Below, piece by piece: positions 3,181-25,900 of a DNA stretch of 36,900 bases (its first letter is position 1; every line of letters starts with the position of its first letter). The notes beneath the pieces were generated by a model, which saw only the letters and a list, made by a program, of their open reading frames with translations, did not search any database and was not told the DNA's origin. The DNA is from Dimargaris cristalligena (taxonomy: Eukaryota), in contig ML002370.1 in assembly GCA_003614675.1 (NCBI GenBank), positions 1 to 36,900 on the forward strand, given 5' to 3'. The position numbers and the translations under genes were made by a program.

Positions 3181-5527
3181 ATGACTTTTACTCTGGACCA
3201 ACTCCGGAATTGTACAAAGGGCGAACTTCAGGAATTGTGTAGGCAGCACAATATGCCTGACAGAGGAAAGGTAAGCCGTCGGAGTTTCATTCTTGGTGAT
3301 TGGGAGCATCCCATTTGGCCCACTGGGGTAGTATGGGGGCCATGGTCGCTCCATGTGTTTTCTTCACTGCCTGATTCTGTTAGGGAACCCACTTTTGATT
3401 AATGGAAAAATCCCCTAACTTGCACCACCCGTCAAAGTCCTCCTTTTTTTGTGGGCCAACCATTGGGCCTGTTTTGCGACACTGTCGTTACACCCAGGGT
3501 TCCCGAGCCCACAACCACATATCTATACGTGCCACACGGATCAGCTTATTCATTTCCACTTATTTGCGCTTGTTTGATCTAACACGCCATTCATTATAAT
3601 TTCCGATAATTTACCATAGACATCCCATCTGATGGTGCGTCTTCGCTACTATCTAGAGGATCAATTGCCTTCAGTCTCGTCCTCGGCTACTAGCAGTGCA
3701 CCCACATCCCCCAAGAGCGATCACTCCAAAAGTTCCAACAGCTCTAGCAGCTCCAACAGCTCAGGAAGCGAATCTGAGTACGTAGATGCCACCGATTCTG
3801 GAGAGCCTTCCAAACCCAAGGAGGATATATCTACGAATCCCGTTCCAGAATCCCTTAAACTCCCCCAAACCCCCAATGCCAAGCCACCTAACAATCCCAC
3901 ATCCCCGTGCCTGACACCCGTCCAAATCCCCCCGCTTTCGCCCGGCTCCTTCACCCCCACTATGGCCCCGGCCGACTCCGTGGCCGACGAACTCCTGACC
4001 GAATTGCGCAAGCGGGTGTCCCGGGACATGGCTCTGAGCAAAGAAGAGCGCGCGGCCATCCGCCCCAAGGCCTGGACCGTGGCTCGTGCCACCGAAGCCA
4101 AGCGCTCGGTATTTCCCGGGGAACTGGAGCGGCCCCAGGAGATTAAATTCGAGACCATCCACCAGAAGCATTTTAATCAAATGGACTCGATTGCCCAGCA
4201 CTTCTCCCTTCGTAAACGCCCGGCTCCCGATTCCGAAACTCCCCAAACCGCCAGTCGCCGAACAAACCGTATAACTCAAGCGGCGGAGAGTCGGCAAACG
4301 CCCAGCAAGCGGCAGCGCATTGGTTCCGACCGAGCGACGCCCGGTGTTCGGAAAATCGATACCTCCCCCACTTTAACTCCCTCCTTGCCACCCGCGGCCC
4401 AGAAATCCAATCCCGCGCAGAAGCCATTAGCCCAGCGCTTTCGGGAACAGGAGCGCCTGCGACGCAAGACTATGAACCCCGCACTGATGCCAACACGGCC
4501 CAAAGCCACCCCCACTGTACAACCAACACGCAGGGCCCCCTTACCAAAACTGGCAGCCTCTAAACCCATTGCTGAGCCCCAGCGGCCCATTAAATCTCGG
4601 GCGGTAGAATCTGGCCCGAAAGAGAACGTACCACCTAGTAAAGGTACCACCAAACCACCGGTAGCACCGACAGCGACCAAACTGAAGCCAAGTGCCCCAA
4701 CATTTAACATGACCACCCGATCGCGGTTGGCCGCTGTCTCTCGTAAAACCCCAGCCACCACGGCCCCGACCAAACCATCAAAGCCCGTGGTGCCTAGTCG
4801 TGCTGGCGCGGAGCCACAAAAACCGGCGGTATCTAGTCGCGGCGTCTCCAAACCAGCCCTACCAGCCGTGACCAGTCGGCCAGTATCGAAACCAGCGAGA
4901 CCCGCTGTACCTAGCCGTACCCTAACTAAAACCATTAAACCAGCCGTGCCTACTCGCCCGACTACCAAGCCTCTCACATCCACTGTACATTCTCGCCCCG
5001 CCAGCACAAAACCATTAAAACCCACGGTACCTAACCAGGCCACTGCGAAGGCGAAGCCAACCGTTCTATCTGTCGCCAAGTCGGTTCCCCCCGTCCCCTC
5101 GCGGACTAAGCCCCCCGGGGCCACATCAGCGGCCAAGCCTGTTAAAGCGCCTCCCCCGGCTCGCCCCACCCCGGCCCGGACCGGCGCCATTCGGACCAAG
5201 AGTTCCGTCCCCACTGCCAAATCCATCGCCGCCTCGGGTACGTCCTCCGCCAAAACCGCTACTTCCACTACTTCAGCGGCCTCCGGCAAACCTGTGGTCG
5301 ACCGGCTTAGTCGGCGATCTACCATGGCTGCACCAGTTAACTCCCAAGGTACCCTTCAACGTCGCCTCTCATACCAACCGCCCCGTATGACGACCGCCCC
5401 GAAAAAGGCGACCGACCTCAAGCCTTCCTCAATAGGTACCTCCACATCGGCGCGCTACGCTCCTTACTCGACCAAAAGGCCCCAACGATCTGCAGTGGCA
5501 CCCGCTCCTAAAAAAGTAGAGACGTAA
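3181..5527 (+). CDS. SAP-domain, NuSAP/Mink-like basic Pro/Lys/Thr-rich protein; exons 3181-3270 and 3620-5527 (665 aa)
   Basis: Exon 1 MTFTLDQLRNCTKGELQELCRQHNMPDRGK ends at donor GTAAGC (3271). Branch CTAAC near 3579, acceptor TAG 3617-3619. The phase-0 join gives ...RGK-TSHLMVRLRYYLE, completing a SAP motif. Internal FETIHQKHFNQMDSIAQH motif, KEN box, many S/T-P sites. Confidence 0.85.
4769..5045 (+). repeat. Degenerate 13-aa (39-nt) coding tandem repeat, consensus about [TS]KPxKPAVPSRxx, about 7 copies
   Basis: TKPSKPVVPSRAG / AEPQKPAVSSRGV / SKPALPAVTSRPV / SKPARPAVPSRTL / TKTIKPAVPTRPT / TKPLTSTVHSRPAS / TKPLKPTVPNQAT. Confidence 0.85.
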
Positions 5528-6053: not shown

Positions 6054-9000
6054 TTAGTCGCTATCCTCGTCCTCGCTATCGTCATCGTCTTCCTCTTCAG
6101 CCTCGAGCAGCCAGTTGATCAAAGGTTGAAGCTAAGGCGAATATCGAGTAGATCAGAAATTATTCAGTGGTTAGTGATTCGTACCCCATTAACCCCCTTA
6201 TTTATACAAAGCCCGTATTGCAAAACCGAACCAGAATATTTTAGCAATAATAAAATCGGCAGAGCAATAGCAAACCAATTTCTGGTCCCAAACTAATAAA
6301 TGGCCTACCTTTTGGTGTAATAATAGTTCGCCGCCGGTGAGTTTCTCGGCCACCGCAGCCTGGTGCCACTGCAGCAGCATATCCTCTTCAACAATATCGG
6401 CATCGTACAACCGCTTAACACAGGGTAAGAACAGGTCGACACGGGCCCGGTCCACCAAACAAAAGTCCTTGACAATGGAGAGCGTGTCGGCCTGGTCCTG
6501 GTCGGAGTTCACCACACTGGCAATCAATTCCCCCCAACGCTGGAAGGCAGCCGCCAGGGAGGGCATGAGGTGGGACAGATCCACCTGGTCCAGAATCTTG
6601 GGGAGAATGATGATACGAATGTCGTGATTATTCTTGTTGTTGGCGAACCGGAGACCTTTGAGTTCTAGGAGAGTGTCAGCGATGGCGTGGCCCTCCGAGA
6701 AGGCCCGGTCAATGGTATCGGCCACTTCACTGCCGAAATGGTCGTACTCGTCGCCACTACCACCGACGTCATCCATATCTTCGAGGGAGTCCAGCGATGC
6801 TTCGGAGGCCGAATCGTCGATGTCTTGATCATCCATACGAATCTGGCCCAGATCGGCGGCTATTATAGTATCAGTAGGTGTCAAGCAAAGGGCAAATGGG
6901 GAGATATCGGAGTATGGAGTGAGACGGTTGCTGCCCAATCATATTTCCGTGATAATCGGCCATGAATAGTAACCGAAAAACTATAAAATCCACCAGAGTC
7001 GACACACTGCCAAGCTCAGACTACCCGAGCCATATCAATTACTTATAATTCCCAACTTACCTAGCGCGTTCACCTGGGATTGGTAAATAGCCTCTGCGTC
7101 ATCGTCATCCTCGTCCGAAGGCACCCAGATTACCGCATTACTCTCGGCTCCCCAACGGGAACTATCGACCACCGTATTATCTTCCGCATCGCTGTCATTC
7201 CAGTCCGAGTCCGCAGCAGCAGCAGCGGCGGCCTTGGTGGTTAGCCGGGTGTGGTCCGGGACACGAATTCCGGGGCCCACCACCACACCATCCCCCACAA
7301 TACAACCCTTACCGATTTGGGAGTGGGAGTGCACGGTGGTCTGATGACCCAAAATCGACCGTTCCACGGTACAATGAGCGGCCACGGTGGTGCCGTCCAA
7401 CAGATAGGCCCCCTGGATGGTAACGTGGTCCCCGATCTGGCAGTCGCGGCCAATTACCGAGTTGCTGATGATGGAGTGGTCCCCGACACTGGATCCCCGC
7501 CCGATGACGACGTTACGCTCCAGGTTCGAAGTCCGGGCCAGTTTGACCCCTGGTTCCTGGTAGACATGGTCGCGTTTGTGGACGTACGCATCGCCTTCCT
7601 GGAGGTTGCTTTCCGGGACCAACGGGAAGGTCCACCGGGCCATGACATCCCGACTCACGGCGTCGTAGAGCTGACCGCCCTGCACGCGGGCCGCGTAGGC
7701 GTGTTGGTCGGCGATGGGGTAAATGTAGAAGGTGGAATCCAGGACTTCGGACCCGAGGATACCGGTGACAAAATCGCGACGCAAGTCCTGGTAATCGAAG
7801 TTTTCGGTGAACAGCGCCGGCACTTCAACGGAACAAATGTCGATTTGGCAGTCCATGAGATCGTAGCGGAGTTGCAGTTGGGGATGCTTCTCGAAAAATT
7901 CGACCGAGAGGGGTACAGTGCGGTAACTGTCGGTACCCCGTCGCGGGGCGTGGTAGTGGATACACTGCTGGGTGCTGTCGTCAATCACGTAGACCGCCTC
8001 CTGGTGGCCGCGGGTACGGTGGTTCGGGGAGGTTTCCTTAACCACCATGGTCATGATGGCGTTCTTGTCAATGGCGCGGCGGGCCTTGTGGGCTTCGAGG
8101 GCCTTGGCCAGATTCATGTTCGATACCACGTCGCCGTAGATTAGAATGAAATCGTTACGGATGAGCGATTTGCCGTCCAGTTCGCGAAGGACGTCGCCTA
8201 CGGACATGGCCTCCTGGGTGACAATGATCCGCACTTCGAATGGAGAGTGGGACTTGCTCCATTTCGATTGACTGGTGCAGCGATAATAGGGCGGAGTAGC
8301 ATAACGTGTCCGGATGTTAGTCTTGATAGTCCAAGGGTCGGGTAAATTTTTAGCCTTATTTTCTTCATTAAATGGGTAATCTACTTAGATACATTGCGGG
8401 GGGGGGGGGCAATAGGTATTGCCCATATACGAATAATTTAAGATATAAAATAAAACAAAGCTTGTACTTACGCAATGTAGTCTTTGATTTTCTGGGCGTG
8501 GATGCAGCAGAAGATGAAAATCTCTTCAATGCCAGCAATCGCTAGTAATTCAAAAGTATATTCGATAAGTGGTACGTTGCAGAGTGGGAGCAGGCACTAG
8601 GGATTCAAGAATACACAGGCAGGTGACATAAGCGGTTTGGACAGGTTTAGTACGGGGTGTGTGGGCGGGGGGAGGGACCCCTATTAGTTGCATGAGTTAT
8701 AGCTAGTCAAATGACCCGACTGTTAATCTAAAGAGGTTCCAATGTCGTTAATGGGCCGGAGCTAGTGAGTGACCCTCACGAGTATATATTCGGCCGTTGG
8801 GACAGCCTGGCCTGGCCTGGAAGGCTTGGCTACGACCCGCTGAGCCGAATGCAGTCGAGTTACTTTAGAACCCGGCGGTACGGAATCTGGGGCCCACTCG
8901 ACTGGATCGGAATAGGTCAAGGGCTTTGCCCTGGTCGAGGGAATTGGCCTCACCGACTCGGCTCCAACCCGAGATGGACTTACTCGGGGGGTGGTTTGGG

Positions 9001-9100
9001 TTAGGGGCATCATTTGCTGGTCGAAACTGTCGGCGATCATGACCACCGACAGCTTCTCCTCCGCCTCGATGTTCTGTTGCTTGGGCTTCTTGGGGGGCAT
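6054..9100 (-). CDS. GCD6: Translation initiation factor eIF2B epsilon subunit; exons 9100-8984, 8596-8472, 8271-7061, 6859-6309, 6131-6054 (693 aa)
   Basis: Four GT-AG introns (donors GTAAGT x3, GTAGGC) join in frame. N-terminal nucleotidyltransferase-like domain (ADSF...PR/CLLPLCNVPLIEYT; SVGDVLRELD; IYGDVVSN; DCQIDICSVEVPALFTENFDYQDLRRDFV). Then left-handed beta-helix hexapeptide repeats (SNSVIGRDCQIG) and a C-terminal W2 domain (LYDADIVEEDMLLQW ... PLINWLLEAEEEDD). Confidence 0.96.
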
Positions 9101-10186
9101 TATAGACGAGTAAGGACTACAAGGTAAACGACAATTTTTAACCGAGATTCAAGTCGAGAAGTAAAGTAAAACGCAACGATTGTGAGTGGTGAAGTAATGA
9201 GCCACCCGAAAAAAATGGAAGCTGGCAGTAGTGTGCTGCTGACTGGGGAAATTCACTTGGGCTGTGTTTGGAATTGGTCTGGCCATGTACATGGGTCTCG
9301 GCATGGGATAGGAAGGCCGGTTAACTTCCAAGCTGGTCTTTATCTAGTCCAGTGAAATTGACTTGGATAAATTAGTGGAGTGGCTATGATATATAGGTCA
9401 ACCGTATTTGGTGACCCATAAGCCATTGCTTAACTTATACACTGTTTTATAGTTGGCTACTTGTGCAAGACTAAGAAGACCCTATATCAAGCTTTTCAGA
9501 TACCATTTCCTGCTCTCTCTCTGGCCCATGTTGATAAATCCCCAGTTGTTATATGTATATAGGGCTAAAATAACGTCTTTGTTCTTGATGACTAACTAGT
9601 TTTCGAAGATTTACATTCCTGCTGGCAGATTAGGCATCTATGAGGCTAACACTACTTCTTTGATATTTATATCCCCATGCTACTATCTTTCGCAGCTAAC
9701 CATACAACAACCATCTAGCTCTTCCAACTGAAAGCACCCTCTGTGCTTCTTTGAGGGGAGTGTTATTAATGCTTTACTTCCATGGATTTTATCCACCTGT
9801 AATGGCCAATACCCAGCCCCCTAGTAATTTTTGGCCTATACCTACCATATATTTTCGTACCAGCTGACTGTTACAGAGGTGTGACCACATTGGGGTTGCT
9901 ATACAGTTGTATATGCATCAACTAATGGGGGATTTGATCAAGGCCAATCACTGTGAAGGAAAATAGATCCCTTTTCAAGGCTACTCATCAAAATGTAAAG
10001 CTTCACAATGCACAGTCATGCTGAAACAGGCCTGTGGGTGTATGGCCAATGAATACATTTTCTAATTTTTAAAGGGCCAGGATAGATGGCCAGTGTAGAC
10101 AGAAATAGGGGCGGGACTGGAAACAATGACATCGGAGTTTTGGTACTAGTCTTTACACAGCAGGTCCATAGTAACACATCATACTT

Positions 10187-11592
10187 GGGGGTAGTACTGT
10201 GTCAGCCCACCTAATCCTCCCTAAATATGGGAATAACAGATCATCCCATCTGATCTTACCTTATTGTGCCATATTACTCTCCCCTTACTATATAACCCAC
10301 TATAACCAGGCCCCAATACTTCTCACACAATACTCCACCAGTGTGGTAAGGTGTACTGTCCCCCTATAAGCCACACTAATTATATTATTATTATTATCAT
10401 TATGCAGGGTATGAAGTGGCTTTTTTTTCTGGTATAACCAGTTTTTTCCCTTCCCCTTTAACCCATTCTTTCCATACAAATTTTGCCTTTGATTTCTATA
10501 TATTTCTATTAGTTAATCCACCCCTTTCATATAATTGGGTATGCATATTCATACATGAGTATTAGTGGTTATTTGATTTTATTCCTATCCTTTATTTTAT
10601 TAGTTTTACCTTGTGAATTCTTATTTTTCCTGTAATTGGTTATGCAGGTTCAATGCAGGCTTATTGGTTTTAATAATTCTCTGTCTTATACAGGGAATGG
10701 CTTGGCATTCTTGGCCATAGAGCCAAAAGTCTTGGCTTCTTTTTGGATTAAATATGCACTATCAATGCACTTGATTGGGCTATGCATGCAAGCAATCAGG
10801 GATACATTAGTGTGCATATTTTTACATATATAGGAAACTTTTTCCCCTCTTTTTTTCTGTGTGTCATTTGCTTTGTATCAAATTTTGGGTACCAATTTTC
10901 TTCTATCTTTTACTTTACAATAAACCACCTTTACTATTACTTTGGATTTCTTGGATTTTATATGCCTTTGAAAGTTGTGGTTACCAAGCAAATGGTCCTT
11001 TTGAGCTTCCAAACTGGTATGATTTTACTTGGTTTAGACTGGTCTTTTTTTATTAAAAGTATTTTATATAGAATTTTTATCTGAGTGACAAACCAGTTCA
11101 CCTGGAGAAGCCACCCTGCCCTTTTGATATGTTTTTTTTGTTGTTCATTTTAGTGGCCTGACACCACCACACTGTGACACTGGCTGATCCAATATTCCTC
11201 CTTTCTTAGTCAAGTCTTCCAGATGCAAGCCCCCCAGTCGAGGCCCTGCCCCTCGCCTCTTCTTTAGTCATCCCATTGCTCTTAAGGACCCCTCATTATG
11301 AGTAGTCCCAGTATATAAATAACCAGGCCCCTCTGGGACTGGTTCAGTTCCTTAGCTTATTTCTTACCCCCATAGTTTACCCCAATAAACTCATCATATG
11401 CTCACCCATTGTATTAGCCAGTAAGTGTACCCACTGCACATCCCTTGCATATACCTGTACTTATCCTTTATTGGTTAGTACTGATCCCTCCCTAACTCTA
11501 GTAGCCTGCTTGGCTGAGCCTAAGCCCCGCCTACCATTAGAAGCCTATCTCTGGGACTCTTGATGGACTAAGAGTGGTAAACCCAGGTGACA
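10187..11592 (+). mobile_element. Decayed LTR-retrotransposon-like relics (two diverged LTR-like segments) inside a CpG-depleted island
   Basis: PPT-like GGGGGTAGTAC followed by TGT at 10198. Second segment TGTGAC(11173)...GTGACA(11592) contains TATATAAAT and AATAAA. The two segments share collinear matches TCATCCCAT(C)TG(A/C)TCTTA (10241/11268), TATATAA (10289/11312) and ATAACCAGGCCCC (10302/11319). No intact ORF or TSD found. Confidence 0.4.
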
Positions 11593-12693
11593 TACTGTAT
11601 TTTGTTTTCAATATAGCAGGTGCTGCTACCCCTCACTAAGGGTAATAAAGAAAATCTGGCATGAGTGATCCATAGAATTCCCTGGTATTGGATATGAATT
11701 GAAAGTGCAGTGGCCAGTGGGGACTGGGTGGAGATGCAGCAGCTGGGCAGGTTCCAAAAGATGGAGTGGCAGTACAATTAGTAATTTGGTCCCTCTGAGG
11801 GTTGCAGCTTTAAAATCCTCTACATCAAAGGTTGACAGGAATCTTACTAGGTGCATTTGCCCTTACTCAGTGTGCTCACTCTCAACAACAGGAGGGAATG
11901 CTTGAGAGCAAGGTTATTATTGAAGGGGTGGGCTCCTCAGAATAATGTTAGTTAAAACAAAGAGTGTAGTACTTTCTTCCCCAAAGAGTGGGAGTATTGC
12001 CAATAAAAATTGGGCAGCTATCGCTCACCAAGCCCATCTAAAAATACGAATAGTGGGCATACGGCATCCCATTGCCCCTTCCTCAATGTACATTTTGCCG
12101 ACCCACAGGTTCCACCAAAATATACCTGTAAATATATAATTCCAGAGGGGATAAACGCACCCTCCGCCTTTTTGAATGCCCAATTGAACGTGCCATCGAA
12201 AGCTGATGGATTTGGCGGAACCCTTTCTTTAATTCCTGGCCAGGGTTACGCAATAAAAAGTCGTATTTTGGTGAAACCCCAATGCGCCCCTCTTCATCCG
12301 TTTCGTGAAGTACAAACGTTACATCTACACTAATGAATCTAACTCCTGTGAACAACAGGCGTTGGGTGGTGCCTTCTCTCCTTCCCCCCTGCAATCGCTG
12401 GGCCACTTAGCTATACTCCACTCCCGAATCCCTATCTCTGGCCATCTATTGATCTACCTTCGTCTCTGCCCTCGCGGGCACCACCAACATAAAACCCCCC
12501 AACCCGCCTCCTCAACTCTATTCACCAATACTACTCATCCACTGCAGAAGTTTCTCTGATATCTCTCTTAACCCATTTACCCACTCGTCTTCTAATTATT
12601 CAGCCACATATCAGGATTGCTTGCGACAAATTCTATTCACCCCCCCCCGTGCCATTTCCCACTAGCCTACCTCGCTCGTCCGCCTGAGCTACG

Positions 12694-13149
12694 ATGAAGC
12701 TGCATTTTATCTTTATCTCTCTGCTCGGCCTCGCCTTGGTCCACTGCGCTGTTGGCCACCCCCTGCCCGAGAACGAATCAAGAATAGCTGAGCTGGAATC
12801 CGAGACGCAGTTGACAGGTGCACTTCAAGGGTTTAATTTACCCAGTGAGGTGATCAATAATATCTTGCTCTCCCTTGACGATATAGAGATGGCCGAGGTC
12901 CCTGATCGAACGGATATAATTCAGGCTTTGTCTGCTAAAAACTTACCTAACGAGCTGATCAACCTTATCATAAGCTTTCTCGGAGATATTGAACGTGCCG
13001 AGGCCGCTGATCGGGCAGCCATCCTTAGTGCTTTATCTGCTAGAAACTTGCCTACCGAGTTGATCACCATTATTATGGGTTACCGGGACGAGGCCAATCA
13101 TCGTGAGCCGATAATTGAACAAAGTGCGCCAACACCATCAACTGAATAA
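12694..13149 (+). CDS. Small secreted protein, 151 aa: signal peptide plus three tandem 35-aa F-box-like repeats (candidate effector)
   Basis: MKLHFIFISLLGLALVHCAVG|HP is a typical signal peptide. NLPSEVINNILLSLD, NLPNELINLIISFLG and NLPTELITIIMGYRD have Leu codons at 12838, 12943 and 13048 (exact 105-nt period). They match the first half of the F-box consensus LPxE(I/L)xxxI(L/F)xxL. Confidence 0.8.
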   Translation: MKLHFIFISLLGLALVHCAVGHPLPENESRIAELESETQLTGALQGFNLPSEVINNILLSLDDIEMAEVPDRTDIIQALSAKNLPNELINLIISFLGDIERAEAADRAAILSALSARNLPTELITIIMGYRDEANHREPIIEQSAPTPSTE

Positions 13150-14841
13150 GTTTCATCAGTGTCCCCGCTACTCGAAAGGTCTTCCCCCGAAATGATGGTG
13201 ATTTCTATGCGCCATCATAACGTGGCGGCTTCGCGTAGACTGTTGGCTAAGAGAAGTGCCGAGGTTGCTAATAATGGGATAGCATCTCACTAGCTTACCG
13301 AGTGCTTGCATGGGTTCGAAATAGGGACTGTCCTCCTATATTTCAAAAATGTGCTATATTTTTATAGTTCACCCAAATAGTTGGGTTCTTTTTCATGCCT
13401 ACTGGATTCCTGGATGTACCTTTAATTGATAATGGATTATATTTAACAGCTCTTATTATTAAAGAATATCGCTATACTACGGTTGTAATTTTCGAGAGCT
13501 CAGGGGTGCTTTAATAAATGAAGCATCACCTCTACTATAGTATATCCCGAAAAATCCATTAAGTATGACTCGAAGATTAAATATTATACAGCTGCTCCGT
13601 ATTTGATATATAAAAATGGATACTCCATATCCCTTGTAGTTACCAGTCATGACATTCTTCGAAGCTCTCTCTTAGAACTGGTTGGATCCAATGTATTACA
13701 GCTTCCACATCTAGTATTAATTAGCAGAATTCTGCGTATTTTGGATCTTATTGAAAACCTCATGGCTAGCCTGACCAATATCAATCAATGGCGTGTTTCT
13801 TATTACAAGGCCATTATCCACATTTAAATTCTACAGGGATTCTTCCACAAGTTGGATTGTATATGTAAGATATATCCAATCCAGTAAAGGCAATCTTTGC
13901 GACCTCTTCACTGTTCGTTTACGACATATGTAGTTGGCTATGTTAGCCAAGCGACTTCTTATACCCCGGGCTAACCATTTTGAAAAACAACCTTATAGAT
14001 CGAGATATCGAGTCAGGACATTGCTGCTAATATGCCACTATTCCTGTTTGATTAGATCTATTACCTATAGAGTACACTGGGGTATTCATAATGACATTCC
14101 CATATGAATTGGTCGTGTATGAATATGCCGTTAGAATTGAGTATTTCATCTCTTACTACTCCTTCTGGATACCCAAGGGATATCGGCTTAAAAATGCAGG
14201 ATAAATGGAAATATGAATGTCATGTCCGTTATTAATGAATAAATTGCTGGACTGACGATTTCGAGAAAAGTTCCCGTTTTGAATGTCAATTCCATCATTC
14301 AGAAATTCCCCACCAGATTCGCGGTCGTTGGGTCGAGAATATAAGATTTTTCTTCCAGTTCCAGTGGGATATGGAGATTTTACGGCATATAAACCATTAA
14401 TGGAAATGCGAAGTTTCGCCTTACACGTTCGAATTCTCTAAAAATGGGTGATGGTAGGATTTAGCTAACATCGCTTCATTATGCGGCCATTCAACAACAT
14501 GCACCCCACTACTCTCGATAATCTATAGGTCCTACTTGACTGCCCCCGATTATCCATCCCCATATCTTATATAAACTGGATATCCTGGCCGTTTACACTC
14601 TCCAAGCTTGTACATCGACTACTCACTGGCCATTTACTCCGGCCATTTTAATAGTTTAGTGCATTTTGCCCGCCTTCCGTTACATGTAATGTATAGCGAC
14701 AATTAATTTACTAAATAATATGTGCACATTACCCTATATCCACCAGCATAACTCCATAAAATTCTCACTGGACTAGCCCCAGCAGGTGACTCGTACGTAT
14801 ATTCGCATTACAACAAGCCCTTCCCCAACATTTTCTTAAAT

Positions 14842-15174
14842 ATGGAGGGTCTCTGTCGGCTTTTCGGGAATGCCTGTAATCTGAAAAACACGCATCCGGG
14901 GGATCTTAAAGCTGACAATACCAGTCTTCCGATCTATTCACCAACCCAGGCCCTAGCAAGTTCTACTCCATCGACCACATTCGTGCCAAAATACCAGCCC
15001 CAAAAGTATCGATGTGGGAATTGTAAAAATGAGTTTCCGGATATCAGTAAGGTTCTTCTACATAATGGGGACATCTGGAGGACTAGCTGTGGCATTTGCT
15101 CACTGGGCTTCGCTACTTTTAAGAAAAGAGATGGAATCATCTCCTATTCCTATAAATCCTACCCGATCCATTGA
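14842..15174 (+). pseudogene. Degenerate C2H2 zinc-finger-like ORF
   Basis: YRCGNCKNEFPDISKVLLH has Cx2Cx3Fx8H spacing but no second His. SCGICSLGFATFKKRDG has Cx2Cx3F spacing but lacks the His ligands. Confidence 0.4.
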
Positions 15175-16937
15175 CGATGATTTTGACTGCAGCTTTGTCT
15201 CCTTAACCAGCCTTGCGTTCATTAATACTATACCTGGCTGACCTGCGATAGTATCGTCGTAAATGGCTTGCGTATTACAAAATAAAGGCACTAGCCAGAT
15301 TAACAAGTAAAATACTTATAAATGTAATGCGTTAGAGACTGACAAGAGAGTATCCAGGTGGTTATACCACAGGAAAGGGGCGACCTCCCAGTCTAGCCTA
15401 TTGAATTGGGTTGTTGGGTATTCTATTACTGTATCACGGACACGGCTAGTTGATGGTCGACCTACATTCAAGTATATCAGTACGCGTTTACAGTATAGCT
15501 TTGCTGCCACTTCACTATACTATACTACTTGCACACCCACACCTTTTCTTAGTCATTAATTGATTTCCCAAGCGCCCCTCCCTCTAATGCATTACCCCGA
15601 ACCTGGCTCCATTCTGATCACATGACCATATATGCCTTTCTGAGTCATCCTCACCTTACTGTTTGTTGTAGCAGGCGCACCCCCTCCCATACGACACAAC
15701 TTAATGATTTAGCTATATCCCTGTTTAGGTACGAATTTACAATAATATTATTACGCGACAGTTCTAAAGCTGTGCTGCCTATTTAGCTAGTTTGTCCAAT
15801 GGTTAGATCGGATCTATTGGTCTACACACTATCCCAAACCCCCAACAACCGAATCTAAACAGAGAAGGCCCATGCTTCATTGGCAGCCAGCTTCTTTTGT
15901 TGGTGGAATGTTATTTGTCCTGGTCGTCTTAGGGATTGCACTTCGCGATTATGGCATGGGATACACTTGCAAGAATCCGATTGTAGGAGTGCGTGAATGG
16001 ATCCCAGCCGGTACAGTGGAGGTTAAAGACATTGGAATCTTAAATTAACCGACATTCATAAGATGCACTCACTCCGTACCAATTCAACAATAAGTTAGGG
16101 AAATAGAAGTGGAATTCGGGCAGATGTGTACATTCGACGTATTCTCTAATCCGCCGCTGGCCAATGGGAAGACCTATTGTTGAGCAGGACAGGTCAGCCA
16201 ATCAGTCTTTCCATATAGGGAAACAGTAAACAAACCGAAGTTAGGAATGGAAGCGCAACTGTACCTGAGTGGTATATTTATGTTTTTTCACTCCCTCCAT
16301 TGTCAGGGGCCGCTCCGTCGCTACCCCTCAGGAACAATGGGCAGTGGCCTCTCCCCTACCAGTGTTGATATACTACCCCGCTCAACTTCCACAGCGCCGG
16401 TATCACCAGTTAGTTCCTTTAACCCATTTGTTGGCCTGTCTATTCTTCCACTAATGATAAGTTCAAACGCCACCCGTAAAACCTTCTTTTCCACTCTGCC
16501 GTATTCCGTCCGACGAGCCCCCCCGTATAGCTTATAGCGAGCTAATCTGCCCCGTTTATTAGTCACGCTTCCCCTTTTTGTGCTCTTTTCAATCCCCCTC
16601 CCCGTCAAATTAGCTCTCAGACACGTAGACCACTGTGTCCCGGGCAAACGACCCGATTCCTACATCTCATTATTCGGTTTATCTTACCCTCCGAAGCCCT
16701 TTCCACGTTGTACGATAGCAACCCCGCTTTCCGACCTCCGCTTCAAGGCGTGTCTATCGATTCCCTCATATTCCATTGTTTAGCCCCCCCTGTCCTACTT
16801 CCCTTGGTTGGGACCAATACCCGTCCTGCTCAGCTAGGAATTAACGGCCGCTATTGGTTTGTCCAACGGAGAAGCAGTCTCCCCTCTACTACGTTTTCCC
16901 GTGCCCCCGCTCGGTCGACTGCTAGCTTCTATTTACT

Positions 16938-19900
16938 ATGAAAAAGTTCCTCGGAAAAATTAAGAGGCGGCGGAAAGACAATAACAACGGTGACGACGAC
17001 GACGACGCTGGCCCAAGTAGCCTGACGGAATCGCTGGACTTGGCCGAGCCCGTCTCACAGTACAGCAGTCGCGAAGGCGCCAGTGTCGCCTACGATATCA
17101 GTGGAGCTATAGTCAGCTCGGCCATCGAAGTTTTGGATTTAGCTGGCTATCCCTCCTACCGCCCTGCCGCCGGGTTCATCCCGTTAGAATCGGCCACTTA
17201 CCCCCGGTTAGCCACCCACCCTGCGAGTGATATAGCCGGTTCCGTATCCCAGAACTCGTCCCAGGGCCCGAATACGCTCGATCAGTCATCGGTAGCTACT
17301 CCGGAACTGCAACGGTTCGAGGCCCGTTTTTTCACCCCGTCGACCCGCCCTGCCCACCCAAGCAGTCGCAATCGCCCCTTGGCCTCAAGTGCCGAGCTTT
17401 TATTGCGCTGGGAACGGCTCCTGGAACAAAATCGGGCCCGCCCAACGGTTTCGGCGACATCTTTGGGGGCACCCGCGTCGCAGGGGGCTTCCTACGCCGA
17501 AACCGTCTTTCCATTATCGGGTCGCCGGCAATATCCGGCTCCGACCACTGATGAGTCTTCTCCACCGGTGGTGACTTCCTTAACCATCGCCGAATCCGAT
17601 GCCACGCCCCAGCAATCCATGTTATCCACCCAATCATTACAGAAATCTATCCATGGGCTCAGCGAATCCCCCTTGGGCCTTCGGCAGTTGCCTGTGGCCC
17701 GGTCTCCTACCCAGCGCCGGGTATCAGCTCCTTTTCCCGTGACCCACGCACCATTATCTCAATCGGATCCCCACCAACATAACACTCTTCCCGGCCGGTT
17801 TCCCTCCGGGTCAGCAGCTAATCCCCAGCTCCGTCTGGATAACCAACGCCTAGTTAAATTTGCGTTTGAAGAGGCCCGACGACGCATCACTACCAAAGAT
17901 GGCCAGACCGTCGAGGTTCCATTGGAACGGTCCCGGCCCGAGGATATGACTGACGAAGAGTGGGAACTGTACGGTCGGCACATCAAGGTACCCATCATGA
18001 CGCCCGTCATGGAAGAAATCCCCATGCGCGAAAAATACCCCCTGCGACATGCCCGGGAACTCCACCGACGTTTATCCCAGCCGTCCTTGGATGAGGCTAG
18101 CTCGTCTAATATCCTGGGTGAATTGGGTCGAGCCCAGGATCCCACTACCCATGAACCGGGCCAGCGACCCAAGAAACCCCGCCATCCACTAGATGAGCTC
18201 TACTATGCGGCCGCCGGGTCGTCCTCGTCCTCAAAGTCTTCCGCAGCCGAGTCCCAGCCGGGCACGGTGCGTGAACACCCATACATAGTTCGCCGGAAAT
18301 CCCTGGCCCGTGCCCAACTCGACATGACATCACCAGTACCCGATACCACTCAGCACCCAAGTGCGGAAGCGGAATATTCCCCGCCGGCCTTTTCAGAACC
18401 CGAGTCAGAACCCGAGGCCCAGACGTTTGACGAAGCCCTTACTCAAGAACCAACCCCAACGGTTTCCCGCCGCAATGCAACCTATACCCCTGAGTTTATG
18501 ACCATTAACATGGGTACAGATGCCCCGTCGTTTAGGCCTACTTCTCCAACCCTACCCCAGCCATTGCCATCAGCTCACTATCAGGTTGCCGGTGACGATG
18601 GTGAGTATCACAATTCATCGACAACGAAATACCCGCCTTTCCAACTCAGCCTCGACCACAGAGAGCCGCTCCAGCCTTCGCCAGTGGTTGGCCGACGGGC
18701 CACCTTCGTCAGCCCAGTCCCCGCATCCCGGGTACCGATTGGGGCTGCCACCCCCTCCTACCATGTCCCCGAACTAGCCGAGGCCTTCGACTCTCTAGTC
18801 GTTGAAGAAATCCAGGGCTCCTTCGTTGGTTCGCGGCCACTGCGGGCGGACAGCTTCAGTTCTATGCAGGCGCGCCCCCTTTCCATGATGGGCGACCATC
18901 CTTCGTTCTCCCCGTCGGCCCGAATCCAACGTGCTCGATCAGCTTCACAGTCCAGTATCCAATTGGGGGTGACCCCCCCCCATGTGTTACCCCCGGAAGG
19001 CACCGTCCCGCAACTGGTACGGGCCTACGACGAGTACCACGAAGATATGCGGGCATCGACACCCACCCGCTTCGCCAGTCGACCCGAATCGCCCTTCCAA
19101 CGGGCCCAGTCCCGACTTTCGATAAGCTCCGGCACCGCTCGGCCTCAACTACCGGCGAACCATATGTATGGGCCTCCGCCCCCGGTTTCGTCGCAATTTT
19201 CATCCTATATGGCCGAGGGAACCCTGCCGTCTCAATCGGCAGGCCTTTTTGATCAAGCGCCCGGCGACTATATACGGCCGCCGCTACCCCTTTTTCAAAC
19301 GGAGGAACCGTACTTTTCGCCCCAAGGGTCATTCGGCGACCCCGGGCGTGGCCGTCAGCGAAGTTCGTCCTCGCCCTTTAATAATTCCTCCTTTGAGGTG
19401 AATCTAGGGGATGCTATAGTGGTAGACCCTAGTACTACCCTTTCCCGCAGATTATCCCGCTACCACTATAATATTGATCCAGCATCGTCCCAACGGCGTC
19501 AACAGCAGCATCAGCAGAAGCAACAGCAATCCCAAGCCCCTGGTGTACCATCAACTTCGTCCTTTTTGACCGAAACCAGCTTGGCGCTTAGTCCGGGGTT
19601 AGCCCCCGTTAGGTCGGGCTATCTTGTCGGAGAGTCATCTGTTGCGACAGTCCCCGTAGTGGCGCGTCTGGTACACCATGCCGAGCGGTTCAATTCGGCC
19701 GCACGCCAGTCCGCTGTTCCGGTTCCAGCTGAACCCGCCTTTATTTCACTGGTAGAACCACCATTACCATTAGCCCCGGGAATGGCACCCGCCACTGATA
19801 CCACGTATATGCCTAACGTGCCTTCTTTTCAAGAGGAAATTCCTTCTTCGCCGCCATTTCGCCCTAGCTTAGCCCCGCCGGCTGATGCACCGGAATCTGT

Positions 19901-22900
19901 CCAAGCTAACCCTGCGGCTTTACGCCCACGCTCACCACCCCAAGCAGAAGTATCCTTACCCCTTCCCCCCCTTTCTCCGCCTCCGCCTTCGTTCCCAACA
20001 CCCTCTCAACCCTCTTCTTCAGTTGTAGCACCCCCAGCGCCAACACTACCCCCGCTTCCCCCACTTCACGTCTTGGAGAGCACCAAGCGCGAGATTCTAG
20101 CTCGGCGGGCTCTTCGACTTAACAACACCAGTATGGCCTCGGTCGCTTTTTCCCGAGACACATTACCAATCGGCAGTTCTTCGACTCACATTGCCCGACC
20201 CTTGTTCACGGGGGATATCTTATCTTCTACAATGGAACGCGTCCCGCCCCAATTACCGTCCCAGACTTCCTCCGTGTCCCCGGAGGTGCACTCCCCGTCG
20301 GCTAACCAGAGTGCCTCTATTCGCCTCGGTCAGCTCTTCTCGGCCCCCGATCCGGAATCCCCCCTTCCACCCCGTACCGGTGATACTAGTAGTGGTCCTA
20401 ATAACGAAAAAGATGATAATCGGCCTACCTCTGATTCAATACTAAACAGCACCGAACTGTTGGAAACACCCTCGCCCGAGGACAGCGCCCCCACCCCGGC
20501 CCGGCTGAGCCATTTAAGTATCAGCAGCCATGATGTGAGTAAATTGTTTCCGAGTATGTCGTCCATCCCCGAAGTGTTTCGCCCACCCCCTAATTTTGTT
20601 CGTCAGCCGGCGCGCCGACCTCCTAAGCCTATAGAAACTGTGCCAGAGGAACGTCCGGAACCGAGAACCTTTGAGACTTCACCGCCTCCGATGCCGATGC
20701 CCGAGCCAGAGCTTGAGCTGGAACAAGAACCAGTAACTCTTGTTACTATTCCTAGTCCGGCCTACAATGACGGGCCGGTGATGAATCAACAGTTGGAGCC
20801 AGTGCCAATGTCCACGGTGATACCAGAGCCAGAGTTGGACAACCAAATGGAACCGGAACCAGAGCCAATACCGGAGTTCATTTCAGAAATTGACCTTAAC
20901 CCTGCCCCGATTTCGGATCCGGCGTTTAACTCCCAACGGATGCCTGAACCTGAGCAAGAATCAAAGCCTATACCCATGTTTATGCCGGAACCCGAACCCG
21001 AACGCCAATCGGAACCAGAACCAGAGCTGGAACCGGAACCAAAAACCGTACATATGTCGCCATCAATTCAACAACGGTGGTCCACTGATTATTACCCACC
21101 TAGACCGACCATCGCGGCTCCCGTACCAACTGCCACGGCCACTCCACCATATTTCCCTCCAAACCCCAGTGTGGTTATTTCCTCGCCCATCCCTCAATAC
21201 AGTACCGAGCGTTACCGCCCTATGCCGTCGTGGAATGCTCCATCGGACCCCCCGCCCCTTCCTCCGTTGCCTAAATTCGTCCTGGACCAGATGTCGTATC
21301 AGGTCCCCGTTATTACCGTTAGCTCCCCCCCGTCGGATATGCGCACGCTTGAATCCATCCGATCCCAGCTGGGCTCACCGAATGCTTCCACCCCCTTGAT
21401 TTTGATCCAACCTGCCACCCCTTCCCCTAAATTCCCGGTTCATAATGACGACGACCCCCTCCCCGGCTCCGCATCGCAGTTTTCCCTGGGCGCCGCCAAT
21501 CTTTTAGCTGTGCCCCAAATGGACCACGGAGGCTCGTTTACCAGTGATTCGGATATGGAGTACGAGTCGGAGGTACCCCAGTATTATTCATACGGCCCGC
21601 CTCCCCCGCTCCCTCCCATTCCTGCCCATTTCCGGCCCTACACTATGACGTCGCCCCCGATGGGACCGAGTAGAGCGACAGTGGACGGCGCCGCCATCAC
21701 TAGTGTACCACTAGAAATGCCGCAAGCTACCGGCTCCAAGTTACCCATCTACCACGATACACCCGAGCATCACAATTCCGCTGAGTTTGCGACAGCACCC
21801 AATTCTACCCGCGTAGTCAACCAGCCTAATTCATCGTCTGGATTCCAAACCCCGCCGCCGCTTTCACCACCCGCCCCTCTCAATACCTTACCCCCAATGC
21901 CTATGCCAGAGCCCGAGCCAGACCATGAAACGAAGCAACCGGCCCAGTCAATGATGTCTCTGGCGAATGACAGTGCGACGGACTTGGGGGCCGACGGGCC
22001 GTCGATTGACCGGCCGTTTTCTACACCTGAAATCCCGATGGATCATCCAACCGACCCCTCTCCTCTACCCCCCGCTCCCCCTCTGCCTCCTCCTCCAGCC
22101 TCCTTACTTAGGGAAATGGCCATGGAAGCCCAATCCATGGCTATGCCTGGACCTCCTAGTCCCACTGTATTACCCCCGCAACTTCCCCCTCTCCCACCGG
22201 GTGCCATACCCATCTCCCCCGATGAGCCTTCTACGCCATCGCTGTTGGCCGCTGAATTACAGGCCAAATTGATGGAACAGAACGGAGTCTATGTGTCTCC
22301 CCTGCGCCAACTAAGAGCCGGTAACCATTCAGCTACATCGATATCGATCTCGCCGGTGCAATCACCGACAGGTCCCCCGTCGTGGTCACATCCGACAGCA
22401 CCGCCCCTCTGGAATCCATCGGGACCAAGTAATGGCCCCGCTTTACCATCTTCGCCTCAACACCGTCAGTCGTCGCCGCGCATATCATCACCCCTACGCC
22501 AGTCCCATTCGGCAACGTTCCAAGGGGCTGGATCCCGGGTGAACTTATCCTCATCCTTACCATCGACCCCCACACACCCCGGTCGTACCCAGTCTTTCAT
22601 TGGGCCCGGCACTCCCCCACCCCTCGAGTTAAATTCGAGGTATTCGTTGGCGGCGTCGGGTTCGGTCCAAACCCCACCGGTACCGCCGTCGGGGCCGACT
22701 ACTTTCTCGGGCTACGAACGGCCGCTACCTGCGGCCCCCGGATCTACCAATATGCCCACCCAGTTTACACCCTCTGGACGGACTTCCCAAGGACAGGAGA
22801 CCCCCTCTCCCTTCTCATCGCCTGCCCGGCCCCCTCTTTCCCCCCAATCCGCAGTGGGGCTCGTCTCTCCCCCGGGGGAGGGACCACTCTCGGGAGGGCC

Positions 22901-25900
22901 AGGCGATACAGGGTCCCTCCCTTCATCTACTAAAAACCCCGCCGTCCAGCCCGGCTGGGAGGGCATCATGCCCATTGAGGTGAAGCACGAACCCGGGTAC
23001 GTGGTGGGTCCCCCAACAGAGGAGTTCCTGCAGAGCCAGCCGGGGAACGTGTTCAGTAAAGTAGCCAAACGACTCTGGCGGGCCGTGACGGGTGCCCCTA
23101 AGAAACCCTATCCCGCCGAATCCCTCAATTCGTCCTTCCAGCAGAGTCCCGAGTGGCACGATGACTTGACCGACTCGGAACACGAGATTTACCATAAAAT
23201 GGGACCATACGATCATCCATTGGCGGGCCTCGGGGCCGGATTTACCGGCCATACAAATATGCCCATGCCTCCGGTCCTTTCCCCTCCACGCCTGCCGCCA
23301 CCTCCCCCGCCGCCCCCTTCCGGGCCCCCCGGTGACTACGCCGACGATGAAAGTGACCAGGAGTCCGATTCCCGGCGCCGTATCTTGGCCACCCAAGCGG
23401 CCCTGTCACTTATGGCCAACGAAGGGGATTACGACCCCTACGTGATTCCCGATCAGGACAAAATCGAAGTACCGCCGCTACCCGAGAGTCCCTCCCCCAG
23501 TAGTCGACGCAAGAAGGTAGCCCGCCTATTATGGGAGGGTCGCTTATCGGCGGACCATGGGCCTGACGTGGCCCAACTCCCGTGGATGAAAGACACGGCA
23601 TCCAAACCGCCCTCGATTCATTCGCAACGACCTTCACTTTCTTCCAATGGGACTCAGATTGTCCTCCCTGAGCCTTCTTTGCCCTTTATTCCACCCCCGC
23701 CCCCGCGTATCCCCCAATCGCCCCACTCGTCGATGCATTCCGGGCGGCACACAAATATGCCCTATCCTTCAATGTACATGCAGGTACCCGCTCCGGGTCC
23801 GGTTTCGGCGGGACCAATGCCCATGCACATGCACATGCCTATGCCTATGTCACCGTTACCACCACCCCCACCGGTACGCGTATCGACGAGTAGAGTGGGC
23901 CTGCCAACTCCAATGCATATGTCCCATCAGCCCGGACATACCCACCCAATGGATGGTTCCGGGGCTTTACCATCTCCACTCCCTCCCCAACTTCATTCGG
24001 CGGGACCGCCCTCCCATCTCCCACCCCCGCCTCGACCCCCACCTCCCCCACCGGGCGATGACCCAGCCCCATCGTCTGGCGAGGGTGAGGGCGAGGGCGA
24101 CGATGCCGATGAACCCAGTACCGATAGCTTCCGGTCCCAGGGCACGATTCACAAGACCACCTCGCCACCCGGTTTAATGAGCTCGATCATCTCACCCCTG
24201 CTTAGCCTGTTTGGTAAATCGCCGGCCCCGGGTGCAGCTGGCTCCGGTCACGGTGATTCGGCGCATTCGTATAGCCAACTGCCGCCGGGTAATACGGGGG
24301 TACCTATGGAGGGTCTTGATGCTTCACCCGCTATCCCTCTACCCGGACAGCTGGCTAACCAAGCGGCCCCGCCTTCGCAGCCACCACCACCACCTCCTCC
24401 TGGTACCTATTTTGATGCCTTCGCCAACGACGATGATGACGATGAAGGCCACCACGGTGATGGCCATGGCCATTTTGGTTCGCAGGCAATGCCCGAAGGT
24501 CCCATGGGCAGTCAACTGGGCTCCAAATCTTTCCATAATCCGGCCATTTTCCCCGAGCCAACCATCGGAGTCAGCCCACCCCTCCCATCTTCGTCCACCG
24601 GCGGTATTTTTACCCGCCTGTTTAACAAATCCTCGGCCTCGGGACCGGAGCCTATTCCGCTGGAGGAAACGCGAATGAGTAAGACTCCACTTCCTTTAGA
24701 TGGCTCTATGATGGCTATGCCCGAACCCGAGATTCTGGACGTAACGTCACACCAACCCGATAGTATGCCCATGCCGTCCATCGATCACCACGGTCCCTTC
24801 CTGACCCCTAGTGAAGTGAAGCGTACCCATAGTCGCCCTCCCGGTGGAGGAGGAGGCGGTGGTGGAGGTGGGGGTGGGGGACACAACGATGATGACGCTG
24901 ACTCGATCGGTAAGGACTCATCGGCGTTTACCGAGTCCCCTGGCTGCTGCGGAGAATGGTGGTCCAATTTGACGGCAGGAATTCGGGCCGGCGGTACCCG
25001 CTATGGACTAGTGGTGACACCTGCCGGTGGACAGACCCTCAAGCGTTTTCAGGCCCTGGCCCTCCCGCTTTACTACCGAGATGTAGATAACTACCTGGCC
25101 GATTTTCCCCACGCCGTATTTGACCCCATCCCCCCTACATCCGAACAACACGACCATCCCCCCTCGGGTCAACGATCCCCGAGTTCCCCCCGCGACCGAT
25201 CCGTGACCTCCCCGGACTCCGCGGCCCACGCCACCTCGGATACAAATCCGGATCCACCGATTAACCGCGATACTTCCCGCAAAATATTATCCGAGGACCA
25301 GGAGGACGTCATGTTTCCCCCGTTCAACGTCCTGCCGAAGCACGCCACCGTCGATCTGCTCCGCAACAACGGCGGCAATTTACGGAAAGCCAGCGGCTGG
25401 TCATTTGGCACCTCAGTCCTGTACACGGCCATCGAAAACATGACCCTACTGGGAGTGATGTCGAACAATCTCACCAAACTCGAAATCATCCGGGACTTCC
25501 TGCAGCTCATTTCCGTGTATCTGCAATCCATCGACGAGCATGTCCGCACGGCACTGTCAATTATCTTTAAGGATATCCCCCAATTTCTCAGTTTAAATTG
25601 GTCCGACACGTGGGGCAAAGCGATTGTGTTCTTGATCGCGTTTAGTGTGGTGGTCTTCATCGCCGTTTTCACTTTCCGCATGACCAAGAAACGGGTACCT
25701 GATGCCGATGCCGAAGGGCTCGAAGTCGAAACCTGGAATATGCACAGTCGGCGTAATTCCCGCGTGCTCAATATCATTGTCGTATTTATTATTACCACAC
25801 TTTACCTGCCCCTCTCCAAATTGGCTCTGGAAGCGATCGTGTGGGACGACAAATACTGGGCCGTTGACAACCCCTACATCCAAAGCGATAATCCGGTGCT

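Follow-up and report, generated by a model that had tools for sequence, protein, structure and literature searches.

Solenoid repeats and F-boxes have both been described in proteins that are delivered to, or act in, another cell, and a related repeat architecture is known inside fungal cells. Fungal NLRs have been described with a sesB-like/NACHT/HEAT architecture (PMC4986451). Secreted ankyrin-repeat proteins make up the largest secretome cluster in two gall-forming plasmodiophorid protists (PMC12503489), and bacterial HEAT/ARM and ankyrin effectors provide examples of solenoid repeats in delivered proteins (PMC4617103). F-box effectors include Ralstonia RipG/GALA and the Hessian-fly SSGP-71 (PMC4617103). 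Each of these sources is drawn on here for the parts that deal with the systems named.

The open reading frame examined here, P0001, lies in a window of 36,900 nucleotides, the whole stretch of DNA that was analysed. Its product is read, with about an even chance of the reading being right, as a small, secreted, alpha-helical repeat protein that is encoded by a lineage-restricted gene and would serve as a solenoid-like, protein-binding module. The evidence for this reading is set out below together with the explanations that compete with it.

Genomic setting and coding status of P0001

P0001 has eukaryotic housekeeping genes as neighbours, namely ZPR1, eIF2B-epsilon and the genes of an ABC1-type kinase and of an alpha/beta hydrolase, which agrees with a fungus-like genome. 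The eIF2B-epsilon gene (6198-8384, minus strand) is read in two frames: the W2 domain lies in the one at 6198-6938 and the LbH/hexapeptide part in the other, at 7035-8384. A short intron is the simplest explanation of the ~96-nt gap between them and would be in keeping with a fungal-type genome. Two other long frames were observed in the window. At 16926-28283 (+), an uninterrupted frame of 3785 codons gave no Pfam match (E <= 0.001 for the whole frame, E <= 0.1 for the last 985 residues); low-complexity sequence rich in Pro and Ser (540 Pro, 431 Ser) takes up ~2700 of its residues, and its C-terminal ~1000 residues include several hydrophobic, membrane-like segments. At 3620-5527 (+), in DNA of 51–59% GC, a 635-codon frame with a 359-codon frame opposite it gave no Pfam family at E <= 0.001.

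Between the housekeeping genes lies a gene-poor stretch, 8400-16900, of ~8.5 kb and 37–49% GC, in which P0001 is the sole recognisable gene. RIP-type dinucleotide indices are not elevated in this stretch, and Pfam searches of nine flanking ORFs gave nothing above cut-off and thus no recognisable transposon relic. The ORF itself, at 12694..13149 (+) in the window ORF reading, is intact, with 151 codons plus a stop. It is the longest ORF of the stretch; its length alone proves little, because chance ORFs of 128–140 codons are found there as well.

This setting is also where a different origin has to be weighed, namely that a fragment of three units, from a HEAT or ankyrin array, came to lie between genes and stands open by chance, as a relic or a young non-functional gene whose product is unmade or has no role. 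We consider this unlikely, while giving it real weight. In its favour are the isolation of the ORF in AT-richer DNA, the company of chance ORFs nearly as long, and a GC3 of 0.51 that is below that of every neighbouring gene (0.59–0.73). The lack of relatives points the same way: an exhaustive phmmer search against 1.84 billion protein representatives found no full-length or similar-length relative, a word-indexed search returned the query alone at near lengths and nothing at longer lengths, and a scan of metagenome contigs found no relative.

The pattern of divergence between the repeats of P0001 (described below) bears on its coding status. The frame is or was coding, with constraint at the protein level between units, because the units diverge most at third codon positions (20 differences vs 12 and 12 between units 1 and 2, and 13 vs 9 and 9 between units 2 and 3) and have dN/dS values of 0.23, 0.34, and 0.39 (dS 1.0–1.95). 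The sole difference in length among the units, 15 nt, is a multiple of three and so preserves the frame. The low inter-unit dN/dS could nevertheless have been inherited from a donor array that had already diverged, rather than reflect selection on the present gene, and in that form it would suit a relic too.

Against a relic stands the fit between the frame and its contents. An in-frame stop lies two codons 5' of the P0001 ATG, which is the first ATG past that stop; the leader begins exactly there, and the frame closes soon after unit 3. When the seven phmmer matches described below and P0001 itself were compared with the window by tblastn, nothing was found outside the ORF (best E 0.31), and hence no flanking trace of a NACHT domain or of a longer array. 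All five DNA runs, which come from one organism and two studies and one of which may itself be the source of the stretch, contain it (word shares 0.88–1.00). In the four runs compared, P0001 lies whole within one contig with its frame intact, and the single difference, at 12864 in one run (ATC to ATA, Ile57), is synonymous; this counts against a relic with almost no power, one SNP across four runs being too little variation for selection testing.

The run that differs at 12864 also carries three SNPs upstream of P0001. A further difference falls in the presumed 5' UTR, where a stretch of C's at 12640, 54 nt ahead of the ATG, is one base shorter in the three runs of one study and has the window's length in the run from the other study. 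The cause is a homopolymer length polymorphism or else a difference between assemblies. The region immediately upstream of the ATG is weakly suggestive of a core promoter and 5' UTR, and is listed with the other features in Table 1.

Repeat architecture

P0001 contains three in-frame repeats of 35, 35, and 30 residues, each carrying NLPxE(L/V)IxxI. On comparison of the protein with itself, 34 identities were found at an offset of 35 residues, against 17 for the runner-up among offsets of 20–59, and none of 5000 shuffles reached 34. In the DNA, the units are spaced by 105 nt and then by 90 nt, and nine columns are invariant across all three (N, L, P, E, I, I, E, R, I). The first-pass annotation had described a signal peptide followed by three 35-residue repeats, which is borne out once unit 3 is amended to 30 residues at a 90-nt spacing. 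It had also assigned LPxE(V/L)IxxIxxxL to each unit; the motif is complete in units 1 and 2, and in unit 3 Y takes the place of the last L. Ahead of unit 1, residues 26-43 possibly resemble a further half unit, as judged by setting AELESETQLTGALQGF beside AEAADRAAILSALSAR. Tandem Repeats Finder gave no report on 12000-14000, because the copies are too diverged.

Table 1. Features of P0001 and its upstream region (window coordinates)
Feature	Residues	Position	Strand	Basis and remarks
Possible core promoter and 5' UTR		12489..12693	+	Pyrimidine-rich, with an A-rich TATA-like element near 12489; sequence reading
Signal-peptide-like leader	1-21	12694..12756	+	Hydrophobicity; -3/-1 rule by eye
N-terminal acidic segment	22-43	12757..12822	+	Sequon N27 and possible half repeat
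Repeat unit 1	44-78	12823..12927	+	Self-comparison, codon comparison, unit alignment
Repeat unit 2	79-113	12928..13032	+	Self-comparison, codon comparison, unit alignment
Repeat unit 3 (5 codons shorter)	114-143	13033..13122	+	DNA spacing, codon comparison, unit alignment
Short polar C-terminal tail	144-151	13123..13146	+	Sequence reading

For structure, AlphaFold2 was run without an alignment on the full protein (pLDDT 56.6) and on the mature part (pLDDT 49.6). In both of these low-confidence models, every unit has a long and a short helix whose positions agree between the two runs. Tandem units at a period of 35 residues, with two helices apiece in both models, fit a HEAT-type layout, in which pairs of antiparallel helices recur every 30–40 residues or so. 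With the first model as query, Foldseek found no PDB match at E <= 0.001; the top rows were unrelated helical proteins, an outcome that is meaningless at the confidence of that model (pLDDT 56.6). The ESM Atlas gave no usable feature match; its own model had a pLDDT of 0.47, with all structural neighbours at TM < 0.5. PPR and TAL-like repeats were considered for the 35-residue period and were dropped, there being no supporting Pfam row.

Nearest relatives

At E <= 1e-3, the phmmer search of P0001 returned seven non-self proteins of 617–2114 residues, all of them long tandem-repeat proteins that match in 3–8 stretches. By Pfam, P0003, P0004, P0005, P0006, and P0008 are HEAT arrays (HEAT_2, E 1e-33 to 7e-163), and P0005, P0006, and P0008 contain NACHT besides. 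P0002, which has the best phmmer E-value (4e-9), is an ankyrin array with a kinase domain, and P0007 consists of short repeats of ~15–18 residues that belong to no repeat family. The five HEAT arrays match P0001 at phmmer E-values of 1e-5 to 5e-4. These whole-sequence E-values are sums over repeats and overstate the significance, because scores per stretch reach at most 19.1 bits, the maximum for the HEAT arrays, with at most 12.9 bits for the ankyrin array P0002.

Pairwise comparison by BLASTP aligned P0001 with P0006 over 88 residues in register (32% identity, pairwise E 2e-7), and the alignment runs through the first and second helix of consecutive units; P0003 and P0002 likewise aligned in register. 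The repeat periods of the matching arrays, 31–37 columns, bracket the 35 residues of P0001. In unit-level hhalign comparisons with array units, the probability was at most 31% and covered the first helix only. No row was obtained for P0001 at E <= 10 from the Pfam HEAT models (PF02985, PF13646, PF13513, and PF03130), from ARM or the TPR clan, or from the ankyrin models (PF00023 and PF12796). Among PDB sequences, a three-unit profile had no match at E <= 10, and searching with the whole of P0001 gave chance-level rows only (E >= 0.48). Most economically, the P0001 unit would be of the HEAT/ankyrin solenoid kind and stand outside every curated family.

In P0007 (617 aa), the first ~330 residues form a regular array of ~15–18-residue units with the pattern LPxExVDRSxLVxFxx, without a Pfam repeat family, and the short unit resembles half of the 35-residue unit of P0001. 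The 35-residue unit might have arisen long ago by the doubling of such a half unit.

Leader and mature chain

The product of P0001 is probably secreted, its signal peptide being judged by heuristics alone (hydrophobicity and the residues at -3/-1). The leader has K2 and H4, followed by the hydrophobic run F5-V16, and its maximum 12-residue Kyte–Doolittle mean is 2.88; of the window's 100 ORFs that start with ATG and reach 50 aa or more, P0001 ranks second in N-terminal hydrophobicity. Small residues in a -3/-1 arrangement follow the run (A19-x-G21 or V16-x-C18), and the cleavage site is guessed to be after G21 or C18.

If the N terminus were instead left uncleaved, it would act as a signal anchor and keep the repeats attached to the cell surface or to a secretory-pathway membrane. 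Extended to V20, the hydrophobic run counts 16 residues, about as short as a membrane helix can be, and K2 and H4 on its N-side would orient the repeats towards the lumen or the outside. For a membrane segment the run is short, however, and as the sequence reads it leads directly into small residues (A19, G21) in the classical -3/-1 arrangement, so that we regard an anchor as improbable.

The single Cys of P0001 is C18, inside the hydrophobic leader, and the mature part is indeed free of Cys, as had been claimed; it also has no Trp and a pI of 4.27, with 23 Asp plus Glu against 8 Lys plus Arg beyond the leader. One N-x-S sequon is present in the mature part, at N27. The C-terminal tail, as read, has no hydrophobic GPI-type end and no ER-retention motif.

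F-box profile matches

According to the first-pass annotation, P0001 is a secreted protein made only of tandem F-box-like repeats. On this account, its units would be truncated F-boxes and the protein, on entering another cell, would act as a multivalent Skp1 decoy of the SCF ubiquitin ligase. Such delivery would be in line with a signal peptide placed ahead of a cytosolic-type motif, and the LPxE(L/V)IxxIxxxL helix, invariant in the three units save for the Y of unit 3, is the most informative part of the F-box profile. The whole of P0001 scored 26.7 bits (E 4.8e-6) against the Pfam F-box model (PF00646), above its cut-off of 20.5, and 20.9 bits against F-box-like (PF12937), under its cut-off of 24.3.

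When the units were scanned singly, units 1 and 2 each scored 15.2 bits against F-box (E 0.02) and unit 3 gave no match. The 26.7 bits are thus the sum of two sub-threshold matches, both to the first helix only, whose alignments span profile positions 3-20 or 3-22 of 43; the comparison with the F-box models therefore goes against the annotation. That the units lack the C-terminal half of the F-box, as it had also stated, is confirmed by the ends of these alignments. The 'VCKRW' part of an F-box stands for conserved hydrophobic and Trp positions of its later helices. The second and third helices have no counterpart in P0001, which has no Trp and where the Pfam alignments end earlier.

As a control, a four-repeat piece of the array P0006, which is HEAT by Pfam (E 1.8e-18), was scanned with the same models. 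It scored 16.0 bits against F-box (positions 3-21 of 43) and 21.7 bits against F-box-like (positions 3-17 of 47), and full-length P0006 scored 23.6 bits against F-box-like. The LPxE(I/L)L start of a HEAT helix yields the same F-box signal, and the match is not specific, because a genuine HEAT array gives the same partial match. Nor was there an F-box row above cut-off in any of the seven nearest proteins, among the matches listed (the best 25 of 26–44 families for four of them).

F-box identity of the units thus lacks support: no full-domain match above cut-off, no later helices, and no specificity were found. What stands of the annotation is the secreted appearance, the body made of repeats only, and a likeness to the first helix, in that the first helix of each repeat resembles the start of an F-box; its view that WD40, LRR, and other domains are absent agrees with Pfam, which finds no domain in P0001 beyond these partial F-box-type matches. 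We know of no tandem F-box array. F-box effectors do exist in bacteria and a gall midge (PMC4617103), which would lend a Skp1 decoy some precedent, but those in the part of that paper drawn on here have one N-terminal F-box followed by LRRs, and none of them is a tandem array. A decoy made of truncated F-boxes is accordingly rated very unlikely.

The window holds no feature bearing on a mycoparasitic lifestyle or a haustorium. In a variant of the same idea, the LPxE(L/V)I helices would mimic helix 1 of the F-box on a secreted mini-solenoid which, once taken up, might engage Skp1 or another partner multivalently. The evidence above weakens this reading too, and we give it only a slender chance; if true, such helix-1 mimics would be a eukaryote-to-eukaryote SCF decoy of an undescribed kind. 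Although a signal peptide followed by tandem repeats only is the layout of Kex2-processed, pheromone, and RiPP repeat precursors, it is barely credible that P0001 is a precursor cut into repeated peptides (in the manner of a Kex2-processed repeat protein, a pheromone precursor or a ustiloxin-type RiPP precursor), since it has no dibasic site (KK, KR, RK, or RR) anywhere, its units are long (30–35 aa), amphipathic, and predicted to be helical instead of short cores between cleavage sites, and no recognisable modifying-enzyme gene adjoins the ORF.

Discussion

Under the reading preferred here, of a secreted solenoid-like repeat protein, removal of a leader of ~18–21 residues would leave an acidic, Cys-free chain of ~14 kDa, composed of three and a half helix-turn-helix units, the likeliest fold of which would be a short stacked alpha-solenoid like those of HEAT and ankyrin repeats. 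In each unit, N-L-P would cap the long first helix, whose I/L residues would form the core, and the short second helix would pack onto it through its I-I/L..A-L pattern and the invariant Arg. The ORF, its repeats, their coding-type divergence and a helical propensity are observed, and secretion, the solenoid fold and a binding role are inferences. A module of this type, which has no catalytic residues, would be expected to act by binding another protein. A cytosolic-type fold with no disulfides would suit a partner inside another cell, as for an effector, or a mild extracellular niche.

Compared with known systems, P0001 shares with the F-box domain (PF00646, PF12937) the LPxE(L/I)(L/I)xxIxxxL first helix, and departs from it in that ~18–20 of 43 profile positions are covered, each unit is under the cut-off, and the second and third helices are absent. 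From the F-box effectors in the cited part of PMC4617103 it differs in being tandem and not single, and in having no LRR, WD40, or other substrate-binding domain. For annotation, this calls for caution: an above-cut-off Pfam F-box call can result when one LPxEL helix, repeated in tandem, matches more than once and the scores are added up, and the same signal comes from genuine HEAT arrays.

Arrays of the HEAT_2/PBS-lyase type, among them those at the C terminus of NACHT (NLR-like) proteins, have tandem two-helix units of 31–37 residues, as predicted for P0001. In both, helix A starts with (N)LPxE/x-hydrophobic, the turn after it is acidic, and helix B contains an Arg and ends in A-L; P0001 can be aligned with these arrays in register over 2.5 units. 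It differs from them in giving no Pfam HEAT match and in an inter-helix turn that is 3 residues longer in units 1 and 2. Set against the NACHT-HEAT proteins, which are cytosolic, it has three units only, no NACHT or other domain, and a secretory leader. With ankyrin arrays, as in P0002, an ungapped, in-register alignment is obtained for variants of 35–37 residues. P0001 nevertheless has no Pfam ANK match and is without the hairpin glycines and the TPLH-type motif of ankyrin repeats.

Repeat-containing secreted candidate effectors of fungi and oomycetes, as covered in part of PMC4617103, offer a comparison at the level of the whole protein: like P0001 with its putative leader, they are small, have a signal peptide and a tandem-repeat body, are lineage-restricted, and lie in gene-poor, AT-richer stretches. 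P0001 is unlike them in having no Cys and a differing repeat, and in being known here from sequence alone. Its value at present is modest, that of an orphan at the same stage of knowledge. The ankyrin proteins of plasmodiophorids would resemble it, by description only and as far as the cited part of their source extends, in placing a cytosolic-type solenoid behind a secretion signal.

Solenoid repeats in delivered or secreted proteins are thus already known, and what would be new here is an unclassified unit in a fungus-type genome. If the gene is real and expressed, P0001 would be a fungal-type case in which a classical secretion signal precedes an alpha-helical repeat module of cytosolic style, a layout that, in the parts of the literature drawn on here, is documented mainly for injected bacterial effectors and plasmodiophorid secretomes (PMC4617103, PMC12503489).
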